Positions 4,667-63,202 of a DNA stretch of 64,000 bases are shown piece after piece. The translations under genes were made by a program, and so were the position numbers. Position 1 is the first letter of the stretch; each line of letters begins with the position of its first letter. Source of the stretch: Thermaceae bacterium (GTDB taxonomy: Bacteria; Deinococcota; Deinococci; Deinococcales; Thermaceae). Location of the stretch: positions 5,847 to 69,846 of the forward strand of contig JBEPYU010000004.1 in the NCBI GenBank assembly GCA_041641215.1. The letters run 5' to 3'. A model generated the notes under the pieces. The model was given only the letters and a program-made list of their open reading frames with translations, had not been told where the DNA came from and did not search any database.

Positions 4667-5058
4667 ACCAGTACACATAGCGGCCTTCCTCGAGGGCATA
4701 CCGCCAGCCCTCCACCCGGTAAAGGCCCAGATCCCGCCACCTCCCTACCCCCTCCCTTAGGAACACCCTAAAGGGAATGCCCTCGGCATGGGCCCGGAGG
4801 AGGCGGAGGTTGCCCCCTAGGGGCTCTTGGTTTCCCCTCCTCCCCTCCCCCATATAGAGGATCCGTCCGTCGGGAAGGAAGAGGTTCCGGTAGCCTGATA
4901 CCCTCCGTTCGTGCGCTAAACTCTACCGGGGCCCCCATGCAGGCGCAAGCCTGCATGGGGTGGTATGGCTCCCCCCGGTCCACGAGAAGGCTCCTATGGC
5001 CGATACCTTTACGGGTCCTATGGAAGGCGAAGACCTCGGCCCAAGAAAGAAAGGCCAT
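4629..5058 (-). pseudogene. SRA/YDG-like (PUA-fold, modified-cytosine-reader-like) small protein, split by repeat copy a
   Basis: Two ORF pieces (5058-4966 and 4895-4629) lie in different frames. Removing the 67-bp element plus one 3-bp duplication (70 bp) restores one frame: MAFLSWAEVFAFHRTRKGIGHRSLLVDRGE(P/S)GYRNLFLPDGRILYMGEGRRGNQEPLGGNLRLLRAHAEGIPFRVFLRE..LGLYRVEGWRYALEEGRYVYWFTL. Confidence 0.45.
4899..4965 (+). mobile_element. TNA-repeat copy a (67 bp, internally deleted)
   Basis: TACCCTCCG...CCCCCATGCAGGCgcaaGCCTGCATGGGGTGGTA. Flanks are TGA / TGG. Confidence 0.8.
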
Positions 5059-5092
5059 GCCTCCCCCTAGGCTATCCTGAAAACCCAGGGGG

Positions 5093-5122
5093 TTGACGGG
5101 CCCATGGTCCTTGGCCTATCCT
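5093..5122 (+). promoter_or_regulatory. candidate sigma-A promoter of the aroF leader
   Basis: TTGACG (5093-5098), 18 nt spacer, TATCCT (5117-5122). Confidence 0.45.
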
Positions 5123-5132
5123 TAGGGCCAGT

Positions 5133-5192
5133 ATGCGGGGCTTTGGGTGCGTCCCCCTTGGGTTTTATTTCGGGCCCAGTGGGCGCCCCTAG
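5133..5192 (+). CDS. candidate leader peptide MRGFGCVPLGFYFGPSGRP (Phe-Tyr-Phe at codons 11-13)
   Basis: 19-codon ATG ORF inside the aroF leader. Its stop codon lies 2 nt past the first GGGCGCCC segment. Confidence 0.45.
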   Translation: MRGFGCVPLGFYFGPSGRP

Positions 5193-5211
5193 GCCCGCAT
5201 GGGAAGCCTTT

Positions 5212-5241
5212 GGGCGCCCTCGAGGGCGCCCAAATCTTTTT
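5212..5241 (+). terminator. intrinsic terminator / attenuator hairpin upstream of aroF
   Basis: Perfect 20-nt palindrome GGGCGCCCTCGAGGGCGCCC followed by AAATCTTTTT. A third GGGCGCCC lies at 5181-5188. Confidence 0.6.
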
Positions 5242-5252
5242 GGGAGGGGGTT

Positions 5253-6287
5253 ATGGTCATTGTCATGCGAAAGGGGTACACGGAGGAGGAGCTTAGGGGG
5301 GTGATCCGGGAGGTGGAGAGGGCGGGCTACCGGGCCCACGTCTCCCAAGGGGTGGAGGCCACCCTGGTGGGGGCCATCGGCCGGGGGGCGGTGCCCGAGC
5401 TCATGGAGCACTTCCGGGCCCTTCCTGGGGTAGCCGAGGTCATCCCCATCTCCAAGCCCTGGAAGCTGGCGAGCCTAGACGTGCGCCCCTGGCCCACGGT
5501 GCTGGAATTCCCCACCGGGAGGACCGGGGGTGGGGCGGTGATGGTGGCCGCGGGGCCTTGCGGGGTGGAAAGCTGGGAGCAGACCCTAACTGCGGCCCGC
5601 TACGTCAAGCGCCACGGGGCCCAGATGCTTCGGGGTGGGGCCTTCAAGCCCCGGACGAGCCCCTACGCCTTCCAGGGCCTGGGGGTAGAGGGGCTTAAGA
5701 TCCTGGCCGAGGCCCGCAAGGAGACGGGCCTTCCCGTGGTGACGGAGGTCCTCTCCCCAGACCAGGTGGAGCTCGTGGCGGAGTACGCGGATGTCCTCCA
5801 GATAGGGGCCAGGAACGCCCAAAACTTCGCCCTCCTCCAGGCGGTGGGGGAGGTGGGGAAGCCCGTCCTCCTCAAGCGGGGGATGAGCATGACCCTGGAG
5901 GAGTTCCTCATGAGCGCGGAGTACATCCTGGCCCGGGGGAACATGCGGGTCATCCTGGTGGAAAGGGGGATCCGCACCTTTGAAAAGGCCACCCGCTTCA
6001 CCCTGGACGTCTCCGCCCTTCCCGTCCTCAAGAGCTGGACCCACCTCCCCGTATGGGTGGACCCCTCCCACCCCGCAGGCAAACGGGAGTGGGTCATCCC
6101 CCTGGCCCTAGCGGGGCTCGCTGCGGGGGCAGACGGGATCATCGTAGAAACCCACCCCGAACCGGAAAAGGCCCTTTCCGACGGGGCCCAGCAGCTGCAC
6201 GAAGGGGAGTTCGCGGAGCTCATGGAAAGGGTGCGCCGCCTCCTCCCGGCCCTAGGCCGGAGCCTAGGGACCCTCCACCCCGCATGA
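5253..6287 (+). CDS. aroF: 3-deoxy-7-phosphoheptulonate (DAHP) synthase, type I-beta with N-terminal ferredoxin-like regulatory domain
   Basis: MVIVMRKGYTEEELRGVIREVERAGY regulatory domain followed by a KDO8P/DAHP barrel (GPCGVES, LRGGAFKPRTSPY, KRGMS, DPSH). GGGAGGGGG SD before ATG 5253. Confidence 0.9.
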   Translation: MVIVMRKGYTEEELRGVIREVERAGYRAHVSQGVEATLVGAIGRGAVPELMEHFRALPGVAEVIPISKPWKLASLDVRPWPTVLEFPTGRTGGGAVMVAAGPCGVESWEQTLTAARYVKRHGAQMLRGGAFKPRTSPYAFQGLGVEGLKILAEARKETGLPVVTEVLSPDQVELVAEYADVLQIGARNAQNFALLQAVGEVGKPVLLKRGMSMTLEEFLMSAEYILARGNMRVILVERGIRTFEKATRFTLDVSALPVLKSWTHLPVWVDPSHPAGKREWVIPLALAGLAAGADGIIVETHPEPEKALSDGAQQLHEGEFAELMERVRRLLPALGRSLGTLHPA

Positions 6288-61555: not shown

Positions 61556-61575
61556 CGATCTTATCCTAGGGCCGG

Positions 61576-62676
61576 ATGGAAGCCCTCGCCTGGATGGAGG
61601 CCCACCTCCCGGAAATCCTCAAGGACCTAAAAGACCTGGTGGAGCGAGAATCCCCTTCCGGGGACCTCGAGGGGCTAAGGGAGGCCGCGGCCTTCCTCGA
61701 GGAGGCCTTCCGCCCCTTGGGCCACCTGGAGCGGCAGGAGACCCCGGAAGGCCCCCTCCTCCTCCTCAGGCGCCCGGGCCAAGGACGGCCGGTTCTCCTC
61801 CTCACCCACTACGACACCGTCCACCCCAAGGGGCGCTTTCCCTTCCGCCTGGAAGGGGAAAAGGCCCTAGGCCCCGGGGTTTACGACATGAAGGGGGGAA
61901 TCGTGGCCCTCCTTTGGGCCTTACGCTATGCGGAAGGAAAGCCCCTCCCCCCCCTCACCGTCCTCTTCACCCCCGATGAGGAAAGGGGCTCCTGGGCGAG
62001 CCGCCCCCTCATCGAGGCGGAGGCCCAAAGGGCCCAGGCTGTCCTGGTCCTCGAGCCCCCCACCCCCGAAGGGGACCTCAAGGTGGCGAGAAAGGGCGTG
62101 GGGCTTTATCGCCTCTGGGCCCTGGGGCGGGCCGCCCACCAAGGGGTAGAGCCGGAAAAGGGGGTAAACGCCATCCTGGAGCTCGCCCACCAGATCCCCC
62201 GGCTCATGGCCCTAGAGGATCGGGCAAAGGGGACCACCCTGGGCCCAAACCGCATAGGCGGGGGCACGGCCCCCAACGTGGTGGCCGAGGAGGCCTGGGT
62301 GGAGATCGACCTCCGGGCCTGGACCCTGGAGGAGGCGAAGCGGGTGGAGGCCGGGCTACGGGCCCTGGCCCCGGTCCTCGAGGGGGCTAGGCTCCGGCTA
62401 GAAGGGGGCCTAAACCGCCCCCCCATGGAGCCAAGCCCAGAAAGCCTAGCCCTCTTTGAGAAAGCTCGGGCCATTGGGGAGACCCTAGGCCTTAGCCTCC
62501 GCCCAGGCCGGGTAGGGGGCGGTTCGGACGGGAACTTCACCGCGGCCCTTGGGGTGCCCACCCTGGACGGCCTCGGGCTCCACGGGGGAGACGCCCACCA
62601 GGGGACGGAGTACGTCCTGGTCCCCGAGATCCCCCGGAGGGTGGCCCTCCTCGCTGGGCTCCTCCTCAGCCTATGA
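61576..62676 (+). CDS. M20 family metallopeptidase (carboxypeptidase G2/ArgE-like)
   Basis: LLLTHYDTVHP, GVYDMKGG, PDEERGS, GGSDGNF. Confidence 0.85.
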   Translation: MEALAWMEAHLPEILKDLKDLVERESPSGDLEGLREAAAFLEEAFRPLGHLERQETPEGPLLLLRRPGQGRPVLLLTHYDTVHPKGRFPFRLEGEKALGPGVYDMKGGIVALLWALRYAEGKPLPPLTVLFTPDEERGSWASRPLIEAEAQRAQAVLVLEPPTPEGDLKVARKGVGLYRLWALGRAAHQGVEPEKGVNAILELAHQIPRLMALEDRAKGTTLGPNRIGGGTAPNVVAEEAWVEIDLRAWTLEEAKRVEAGLRALAPVLEGARLRLEGGLNRPPMEPSPESLALFEKARAIGETLGLSLRPGRVGGGSDGNFTAALGVPTLDGLGLHGGDAHQGTEYVLVPEIPRRVALLAGLLLSL

Positions 62677-62778
62677 TACCACCCCATGCAGGCTTACGCC
62701 TGCATGGGGGCCCCGGTAGAAAAGTCCTCGTAGAGTTTTTTGGGAACCTGGAAGCGAAGGAACCAAGAGCAAAGGATA
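62677..62778 (-). mobile_element. TNA-repeat copy i (102 bp)
   Basis: Flanked by TGA (62674-62676, the M20 stop) and TGA (62779-62781). Confidence 0.85.
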
Positions 62779-62781
62779 TGA

Positions 62782-62809
62782 GCCCTTTCACCCTTAGGGT
62801 GCAAAGGGC
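62782..62809 (+). terminator. 13-bp-stem hairpin, probable original M20 terminator
   Basis: GCCCTTTCACCCT-t-AGGGTG(C)AAAGGGC, directly after the duplicated TGA. Confidence 0.45.
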
Positions 62810-62916
62810 CTTGGAGGCCAAGGGGTATGACCACCTCCAGGTCCAGGAGCTAGACCTACCCACCCGCACGGACCTTGGGGCAACCAGGGCCGTAAGAGCA
62901 GAGGTAGAGCAGATAA

Positions 62917-63018
62917 TACCACCCCATGCGGGCTTGCGCCCGCATGGGGACCCCGGTAGAAAAGTCCCCGTGAGGTTTTTTGGGAATCTGAGGGCGCAGG
63001 AACCAAAAGTAAAGGGTA
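62917..63018 (-). mobile_element. TNA-repeat copy j (102 bp)
   Basis: Flanked by TAA (62914-62916) and TAA (63019-63021). Inserted in the loop of AGAGCAG...CTGCTCT. Confidence 0.85.
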
Positions 63019-63202
63019 TAAAGAGCCTGCTCTTCGTAGGAAGGGGGGTATCTTTTCCCCATCAGCGGCAAAAACCGTCTGGACCCGAACCTCGCCAAGG
63101 CCCGAGCCCCGGTGGGGGATGTCCTCTGGAAGGCAAGCCCGGAGGTACGGGCCTTCACCGGGGCCTAGGTGGCCGACCTCAAGGGACCGGATTAAGCTAG
63201 GG

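Follow-up and report, generated by a model that had tools for sequence, protein, structure and literature searches.

A family of short, hairpin-bearing elements with T-N-A target-site duplications in Thermus genomes

A 64,000-nucleotide stretch of contig JBEPYU010000004.1 (Thermaceae bacterium, assembly GCA_041641215.1), called the window below, contains ten copies of a short repeat, named a to j along the sequence, and at least dozens of further copies are present elsewhere in the hot-spring genus Thermus. With a probability of about 0.75 these repeats form a genus-wide Thermus family of non-coding, non-autonomous elements of about 100 bp that create a 3-bp T-N-A target-site duplication and are moved in trans. 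The copies in the window range from 35 to 119 bp, all ten are intergenic and no open reading frame (ORF) lies inside the element. One end of the element is a short tip, the other a G+C-rich hairpin, and the hairpin end lies in many copies directly at the stop codon of a neighbouring gene.

The target-site duplication

An earlier reading of the window from its sequence alone had listed ten copies and had explained their flanks as the footprint of a transposition with 3-bp T-N-A duplication. A BLASTN search with copy j and an nhmmer profile built on six full copies recovered all ten at the same coordinates, and nhmmer with its filters off (--max, E up to 10) gave no eleventh copy in the window. 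A 31-nt core of the element had four matches in the window at up to three mismatches, none were obtained in 100 shuffles. The very high density that had been noted, one copy per 6.4 kb, is real and specific to the species. On re-reading, every flanking triplet was identical to the first account. Six of the ten copies have identical flanks, 1.6 being expected if the flanks are shuffled among the copies (225 of 200,000 shuffles reached six). The copies of the window and those of other Thermus genomes were pooled to 31 curated elements; 18 of these have identical 3-bp flanks versus 6.6 expected, and none of 200,000 shuffles reached 18. Where both flanks are T-N-A, the middle base agrees in 18 of 23 elements. 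The flank pattern persisted in the other genomes.

The stop codon of rtcB was available as a filled and as an empty site. In Thermus parvatiensis the sequence is AAGGGG-TAA-[90-bp element]-TAA-GGCTCC..TTCTCA, in T. oshimai, in a Thermus metagenome-assembled genome (MAG) and in the window it is AAGGG(G/C)-TAA-G(C/G)CC..TTCTCA. Taking out the element and one TAA gives back the empty sequence. The empty sites carry the triplet once; in the window this single TAA, the rtcB stop codon, is located at 54425..54427 on the forward strand. Two loci fetched from other genomes (such loci bear L numbers), L012 and L008, contain two elements in tandem, TTA[el]TTA[el]TTA, and such arrays are produced by a second insertion into a duplicated target. 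In the subfamily of the Thermus sp. JCM 17653 type closely related copies differ in the middle base of the triplet, hence the triplet stems from the target and is not inherited from the donor. Flank statistics, empty sites, tandem arrays and a middle base independent of lineage bear out the transposition footprint. Insertion sites read 5'-(C-Y)-T-N-A-3', with T-N-A on both sides afterward; the C-Y is an extra weak preference before the T-N-A of the left flank and is seen on this flank only. A site-specific recombinase with an inherited 3-bp core, as in IS110-like elements, was rejected, since the flanks past T-N-A are unconserved and the middle base is independent of the copy lineage. Other boundaries of the duplication (TA, AT or 5 bp) conflict with the single TAA at the empty site and with most flanks. 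In T. thermophilus TF19 (L069:4378-4460) an IS256-family element (Transposase_mut) has landed within the hairpin element after the rtcB stop codon, and just TACCACCC is left beside the stop codon.

Two unlike ends and the mobilising enzyme

The left end of the element consists of the tip TACCC(C)TTT and a semi-conserved stretch of about 30 nt (...TTCCTTCGCC-like). The middle is specific to the subfamily. The right module is composed of a T-rich run, ACCGGGGC, a 12-bp G+C-rich hairpin (CCCCATGCNGGC-loop-GCCNGCATGGGG) and the tail TGGTA. Only the left tip with its loose 30 nt and the right module are conserved across species, and deletion derivatives of 54-105 bp retain both tips. The terminal inverted repeats are as tiny as first described, 4-5 bp (TACC...GGTA), below the length of transposase binding sites (typically at least 10 bp), and beyond these bases the two ends have nothing in common. 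A sister family, of which the window has no copy, is built in the same way around another stem, AGTGCCCRCACC...ACACGGGATGCCCGA...CTTTTGGGGC CCCCACCGCGGC-loop-GCCGCGGTGGGG TAC, and bodies and hairpins have been swapped between the main and the sister hairpin families. Sister copies were seen at L012:4380-4610, L008 (reverse strand, about 930-1050), L002:1195-1310, L033:545-715, L062 and L068 (both about 760-840) and, unannotated, on T. thermophilus plasmids. They are flanked by 3-bp repeats (TTA/TTA, CTA/CTA) and sometimes adjoin a main-family copy with which they have the duplicated triplet in common.

The hairpin, a 12-bp stem with a loop of 4-5 nt, is the sole consistently predicted structure; it folds strongly as DNA or RNA (folding z = -6.1 for copy f, the hairpin alone), and the left part has no conserved fold. 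In an alignment of both hairpin families 97.5 % of the cells pair, and pairing falls to about 40 % with the partner shifted by one column. Four adjacent stem pairs are changed on both sides between the two families, thus in a compensatory manner, and the covariation score was 0.336 versus 0.110 in shuffles (0 of 500 reached it) for copies gathered by patterns that partly impose a palindrome. At the one free stem position of the main family T-A was present 31 times, G-C 6, A-T 4 and C-G once, with 5 mismatched or wobble pairs. The comparison of sequences suggests that the hairpin is kept as a structure; selection on the structure is unproven. Loops occur in both orientations (GCAA 14, TTGC 3; TTGG 12, CCAA 5). 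The stems of copy c (window 30740-30773) and of its orthologue in L077 (4944-5062) are identical, and the loops differ at three of four positions, AGAA versus TTAT. Inverting one loop of this pair leaves one difference, which suggests that the loop of copy c was flipped in place relative to L077. Loop sequence and strand thus appear unselected, which speaks against a loop-specific RNA function. The L077 copy has a 9-bp tandem duplication (GCAGGAACC) within the element.

A structurally maintained subterminal hairpin, 5 nt from one end, and asymmetric ends without real inverted repeats would fit an element that resembles a repetitive extragenic palindrome (REP) or a palindrome-associated transposable element (PATE) and is processed in single-stranded form by an HUH (Y1) enzyme, be it a domesticated transposase of the RAYT type or an IS200/IS605 TnpA, with the hairpin as recognition structure. 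Like REP sequences, the copies are extragenic, numerous and located just past stop codons; the left flank C-Y-T-N-A, pentanucleotide-like, resembles a target motif, loops are present in both orientations, and IS605-type OrfB (TnpB) elements are widespread in Thermus. We nevertheless consider this explanation quite improbable. HUH transposition makes no duplication, whereas here the left and right triplets agree and change jointly between copies; the middle base does not follow descent among the copies, which also argues against an IS200/IS605-type end with the triplet as a part of it, and tandem arrays with three TTA triplets exist. The hairpin is found at one end only, the GTAG expected at its 5' foot is absent, the bases there being CTAC, TGAC or TTGC by subfamily, and the window has no Y1 transposase gene.

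We favour a transposase with 3-nt staggered cuts, acting in trans, over an HUH enzyme. Such an enzyme would cut the target with a 3-nt stagger and join the two unlike ends of the element, and it would recognise the hairpin module as a structure together with the short TRCCC tips. A DDE-type enzyme would be the most likely candidate class.

The T-N-A triplet of 3 bp is characteristic of the IS5 subgroups IS1031, IS427 and ISL2 among the ISfinder families. With the duplication confirmed, and with IS5-family elements occurring in Thermus (ISTth7), a miniature inverted-repeat transposable element (MITE) could have been derived from, and be mobilised by, an insertion sequence (IS) of one of these three subgroups, or a PIF/Harbinger-like enzyme, located at another place in the genome. 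The sequence-only reading had proposed an IS5-like helper of this kind. We found no support for it and hold such an origin to be unlikely. The ends are asymmetric, one of them a hairpin, they carry no IS5-like inverted repeats and have only TACC/GGTA in common. A published survey of the Thermus mobilome contains one IS5-family member, ISTth7 of the ISH1 subgroup with 8-bp duplications, and T-N-A duplications are listed for none of its ISs; MITE-Hunter is named as a tool in the survey, but no MITE is reported. An ISTth7-type element, a strain-specific insertion near groES of T. thermophilus (L065:8560-9640), has, by comparison of L065 with L059, an 8-bp duplication, CAACCCCC, and ends (GGGCTTGCC...) that are unrelated to those of the hairpin element. 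Furthermore, the window has no DDE_Tnp_1 gene, no long element with the ends of the repeat was found in the window, the fetched loci or the plasmid, phage and viral collections, and a weak C-Y on one flank only is not the symmetric target of a symmetric transposase dimer. A second strain-specific insertion near groES in T. thermophilus (L060:5360-6560), a 1.1-kb element with the ends CTCAAAACTTGCAC and the 4-bp duplication TTAG, is unrelated to the hairpin element.

Pfam scans of the approximately 66 ORFs of the window identified only housekeeping genes and no transposase or integrase family, in agreement with the first account. An autonomous partner was found neither on plasmids nor in phage or viral collections, nor in an all-against-all BLAST of the fetched loci. 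A BLAST search of plasmids with the left end gave chance-level matches only, including 24 nt within an IS607 gene at E = 6. A left end without a nearby hairpin was seen in one case, at the edge of L032. The first 93 bases of this locus (reverse strand) hold a left end of the JCM 17653 type (TGA followed by TACCCTTTTATGCTAATTCCTTCGTCCTAGGCC...) and, up to the locus boundary, no hairpin; the sequence may belong to a longer element or to a copy that has diverged.

Stop codons and orientation

Of the 51 hairpin ends examined, 26 directly adjoin the TAA or TGA stop codon of a gene running toward them, in comparison to two abutments at the opposite end (copy b and the hairpin-only copy f). At such a gene the hairpin begins about 5 nt past the stop codon, which would place it in the 3' untranslated region or in a spacer within an operon. 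In the window, five of the ten copies abut a stop codon, b that of mdh, c of a Zn-ribbon gene, e of groEL, f of pilD and i of an M20 peptidase gene; a copy on a T. thermophilus plasmid abuts the stop codon of sdhB. The duplication regenerates the stop codon at abutting copies. This placement at stop codons and its orientation are new here; the sequence-only reading had missed them, as well as the genus-wide modular subfamilies and the age of most copies. Stop codons represent 33 of the 226 T-N-A sites of the window that would tolerate an insertion (stop codons and non-coding DNA). The genes of the window end in TAG (32 of 65), TGA (20) or TAA (13), an unusually high share of TAG. Despite TAG stop codons in half of the genes, TAG or CTA is almost never seen in the flanks. 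Thus, T-N-A is the target by mechanism, and stop codons are favoured among the T-N-A sites. Copies away from stop codons have T-Y-A and T-R-A flanks in about equal numbers, so that the orientation bias is tied to the neighbouring gene.

The bias is more likely a result of selection than of target choice. In a genome of 67 % G+C, few T-N-A sites would take an insertion without harm, and stop codons would belong to these; the bias would reflect selection on the effect of the element on transcripts. Candidate causes are polarity or antisense effects of an element in the disfavoured orientation, which may be polar or fire antisense, or a REP-like role in the favoured one, where the hairpin may act as 3' stabiliser or modulate termination. 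Downstream of the stop codon, copies e and i precede the hairpin that the gene itself has there, and copy c is inside a two-gene unit. Judged from these positions, the three should be co-transcribed, the hairpin starting about 5 nt past the stop codon. As a more daring and rather doubtful proposal, the elements and the sister family would represent an unrecognised Thermus transposition system, whose enzyme would recognise one end by its hairpin and the other by an unrelated sequence, cut T-N-A with a 3-nt stagger and insert preferentially and directionally at stop codons, with targeting linked to gene ends in some manner, or else hairpins of 3' untranslated regions (UTRs) co-opted throughout the genus. 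Co-opted 3'-UTR hairpins 5 nt past the stop codon would explain the orientation bias of 26 to 2.

Another explanation dispenses with mobility. A regulatory module of the host, i.e. a 3'-UTR hairpin, an mRNA stabiliser or terminator or a small RNA, could have been spread by recombination and selection, and the triplets would be stop codons. One copy in two is placed directly at a stop codon, and this with a fixed orientation, the hairpin is kept at orthologous sites while the neighbouring sequence diverges, e.g., at the end of an rpoC-like gene in L009 and L014, and some subfamilies have a small hairpin followed by a T-run. However, matching triplets are also present at copies without a stop codon (h, j, L012, L019, L028), TAG ends 32 of 65 genes and yet is nearly missing from the flanks in either orientation, and at rtcB presence and absence differ precisely by the element and a 3-bp duplication. 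Copies exist in both orientations, in a divergent promoter region (d) and in a degraded region (j). The big hairpin is not followed by a U-tract in the gene-sense orientation, and the orientation of its loop is not fixed. Rfam gave no match at gathering scores over the whole window and none at E up to 1 for copies i and j, and no named family was matched. We consider a host module very improbable. An element-borne promoter or terminator was rejected as well, as no common motif was found and an alternative terminator fold of the window subfamily is unconserved in the others.

The copies in the window and in the genus

Copies c, d, g, h, i and j (98-102 bp) and the longer copy b (119 bp) are the seven near full-length copies. 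The left end is at the low coordinate in a, b, c, d and f, and e, g, h, i and j are inverted. Along the window, a-d, all below 36 kb, have the left end low, and above 38 kb every full or partial copy (e, g, h, i, j) is inverted; the GC skew had no switch matching this change and was uninformative on the direction of replication. Copy a (4899..4965, forward strand) is a 67-bp internal-deletion form, the left tip TACCC and then the hairpin module, between the genes of pantothenate kinase and DAHP synthase; its flanks are TGA (4896-4898) and TGG (4966-4968). Copy b (25997..26115, forward) has about 20 bp inserted in the 5' arm of the hairpin and TAA/TAA flanks. The malate dehydrogenase gene mdh ends in the left TAA (25994-25996), and b is the sole full copy with the left end toward the abutting gene. 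Copy c (30672..30773, forward; full, 102 bp) lies within a Zn-ribbon/SPFH gene pair and is flanked by TTA/TTA, of which the right one (30774-30776) is the stop codon of the Zn-ribbon gene on the minus strand; the hairpin end points toward that gene. Copy d (35826..35927, forward; full, 102 bp), with TCA/TGA flanks (one mismatch), is in a divergent promoter region, about 65 bp upstream of a groES promoter-like site (35994-36022). Copy e (38021..38095, reverse) is a partial copy of 75 bp that separates groEL from the terminator hairpin of this gene. Of its flanks, TAG/TAC, the TAG (38018-38020) is the stop codon of groEL, toward which the hairpin end is directed.

The 35 bp of copy f (40758..40792, forward) comprise nothing but the hairpin and the TGGTA tail. 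TGA is present on either side, and the prepilin peptidase gene pilD ends in the left one (40755-40757). This copy is exactly at a rearrangement junction. In the window (39183-41448) the order is pilD, f, nlpC/P60 on the same strand; in T. thermophilus and metagenome relatives a DUF2939 gene and a nitroreductase gene are located between pilD and nlpC/P60, and nlpC/P60 is on the opposite strand. The elements may therefore contribute to genome rearrangement. Copy g (51710..51807, reverse; 98 bp), between the convergent genes of an M17 aminopeptidase and Fur, has a degenerate hairpin-end tip (TCTCACCC...) and unmatched flanks. Copy h (56964..57064, reverse; full, 101 bp) is intergenic with TTA/TTA flanks. 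Copy i (62677..62778, reverse; full, 102 bp), flanked by TGA/TGA, is situated between the M20 peptidase stop codon, its left TGA (62674-62676), and a downstream hairpin (GCCCTTTCACCC-TTA-GGGTGCAAAGGGC), with the hairpin end toward the peptidase gene. Copy j (62917..63018, reverse; full, 102 bp) has TAA/TAA flanks in a region without a confident gene, beside gene fragments; no confident gene was present between i and j. Short ORFs at 61066-61410 and 63461-63931 bracket the region of these two copies. Their matches, to a CitMHS transporter and a sodium:alanine symporter, are confined to internal or C-terminal parts of these proteins, and the ORFs are probably gene fragments.

Inteins were encountered in the compared loci. 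RtcB is free of an intein (476 aa) in the window (52997-54427) and in T. scotoductus, and carries one (about 958 aa) in T. thermophilus, T. parvatiensis, T. oshimai and others (loci compared: L018, L069, L072, L073). DnaE of T. islandicus (L046:11741-16675) has an intein with a LAGLIDADG domain, the relative L042 lacks it.

A scan across genomes with a pattern for the hairpin end gave, among the matches listed, Thermus genomes only, with the family in Thermus sp. JCM 17653, T. arciformis, T. parvatiensis, T. igniterrae and several MAGs. A few unannotated copies are on plasmids of T. aquaticus and T. thermophilus, and phage and viral collections contained none. The GroEL of the window is 93-95 % identical to those of named Thermus species; an identical GroEL was present in the protein collection solely for the window's own 72.5-kb contig. 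Within 10 kb on either side of groEL, ten T. thermophilus and three T. oshimai-type genomes had no copy. The GroEL-anchored 21.6-kb regions of relatives, among them L042 with 95 % GroEL identity, contained one copy and one remnant, both in T. islandicus. The site of copy e is without an element in T. oshimai and L042, and T. islandicus has a degenerate remnant at the same groEL site. The identity of the window copies to copy j is 82-88 %, the flanks have decayed in four of the ten, and copy c, with a TAA/TAA duplication, is common to L077, a Thermus 85 % identical in DNA. The insertions in the window are mostly ancient, and the family is not demonstrably active in this genome.

Several observations weigh against a family mobilised in trans. 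Neither an autonomous element nor a candidate transposase was present in the window or beside the copies in about 75 fetched loci. Inverted termini of 4-5 bp and asymmetric ends are unusual for DDE-mobilised MITEs, and a terminal hairpin is more typical of the HUH single-strand transposons, and these leave their target unduplicated. A clean empty site was seen at one locus, rtcB, by comparison across species, not strains. For the copies of the window no clean empty site was found in the relatives compared: T. oshimai has no copy at the groEL site and its downstream spacer is unalignable; the Zn-ribbon site of T. scotoductus-type genomes is empty and uninformative, with TAG and an unrelated spacer. 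An insertion polymorphic within a species was not seen, and current mobility is unproven. No promoter-like or terminator-like motif is common to the elements. Finally, the covariation in the stem is weakened by the pattern-based gathering of the copies, and it is no proof of selection, because a perfect DNA palindrome can homogenise its own arms. Further searches for unoccupied sites had the same outcome. Sites d and e had no clean empty counterpart in the GroEL-anchored loci of L042, T. oshimai, T. islandicus and T. thermophilus, the intergenic DNA being too diverged. A search with the NlpC/P60 protein gave no orthologous junction of copy f in metagenome relatives, where the gene order differs. 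The closest relative by SPFH protein, L077, also carries copy c. Orthologous pairs among the fetched loci (L019 versus L030; L025 or L006 versus L041) had unalignable spacers, and exact look-ups of two proteins of the window revealed no sister strain.

The elements share many traits with bacterial MITEs such as Correia/NEMIS of Neisseria, RUP of Streptococcus pneumoniae and IS630- or IS5-derived elements: they are small, non-coding, multi-copy and intergenic in both orientations, deletion derivatives keep both tips, the target-site duplication is short and an internal transposase is lacking. In contrast to MITEs, which have inverted repeats of about 15-30 bp, those of the Thermus element measure 4-5 bp, the ends are unlike, one being a conserved hairpin, and no parent IS was found. 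The duplication is T-N-A, whereas it is TA for Correia-type and IS630-type elements. A 3-bp T-N-A or T-W-A duplication is shared with the IS5 subgroups IS1031, IS427 and ISL2 and with the eukaryotic PIF/Harbinger-Tourist MITEs; the ends of the Thermus element, however, do not resemble the inverted repeats of the IS5-family subgroups and no cognate element was found.

In appearance the element is closer to REP sequences, their mosaic elements (BIME) and PATEs: a G+C-rich extragenic palindrome of similar size lies past stop codons or in operons, its sequence specific to the species and its structure constant. Like REP and BIME sequences, the Thermus hairpin is likely to be present in 3'-UTRs. 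In E. coli, REPs stabilise mRNA and affect translation termination within about 15 nt of the stop codon. The Thermus element differs from REP and PATE by a true 3-bp duplication and a second, non-palindromic end about 60 nt away. Unlike in REPs, no fixed tetranucleotide of the GTAG type is present at the stem, the preceding bases being ...CTACCGGGGC, ...TGACCGGGGC or ...TTGCCGGGGC by subfamily, and no RAYT or TnpA partner was seen in the window or the fetched loci. A PATE derived from IS200/IS605 has subterminal hairpins at both ends and inserts, without a duplication, on the 3' side of a fixed tetra- or pentanucleotide; here the hairpin is at the right end only, and the triplet that follows C-Y on the left recurs, middle base included, on the right. 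The mycobacterial interspersed repetitive units (MIRUs) are likewise short intercistronic repeats of a high-G+C genome, located exactly at stop or start codons with the reading frames left intact. MIRUs are tandem and minisatellite-like with small overlapping ORFs, whereas the Thermus element is a single insertion with duplication and hairpin. A literature search limited to open-access papers revealed no prior description. The family is new and atypical, MITE-like in behaviour and REP- or PATE-like in look.

A dense, genus-wide and unannotated family affects the annotation of genomes and the reading of 3'-UTRs and of spacers within operons. Assemblies are affected as well: contigs of the draft genome of Thermus sp. 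JCM 17653 break at these repeats. The mixture of duplication, hairpin, asymmetric ends and shuffled modules points to an enzyme outside the standard IS families, and Thermus, a model thermophile with good genetics, is an organism in which this enzyme is worth finding. Through the exact placement at stop codons in one orientation it becomes testable whether a selfish repeat influences what happens to the upstream mRNA or the termination of its translation.

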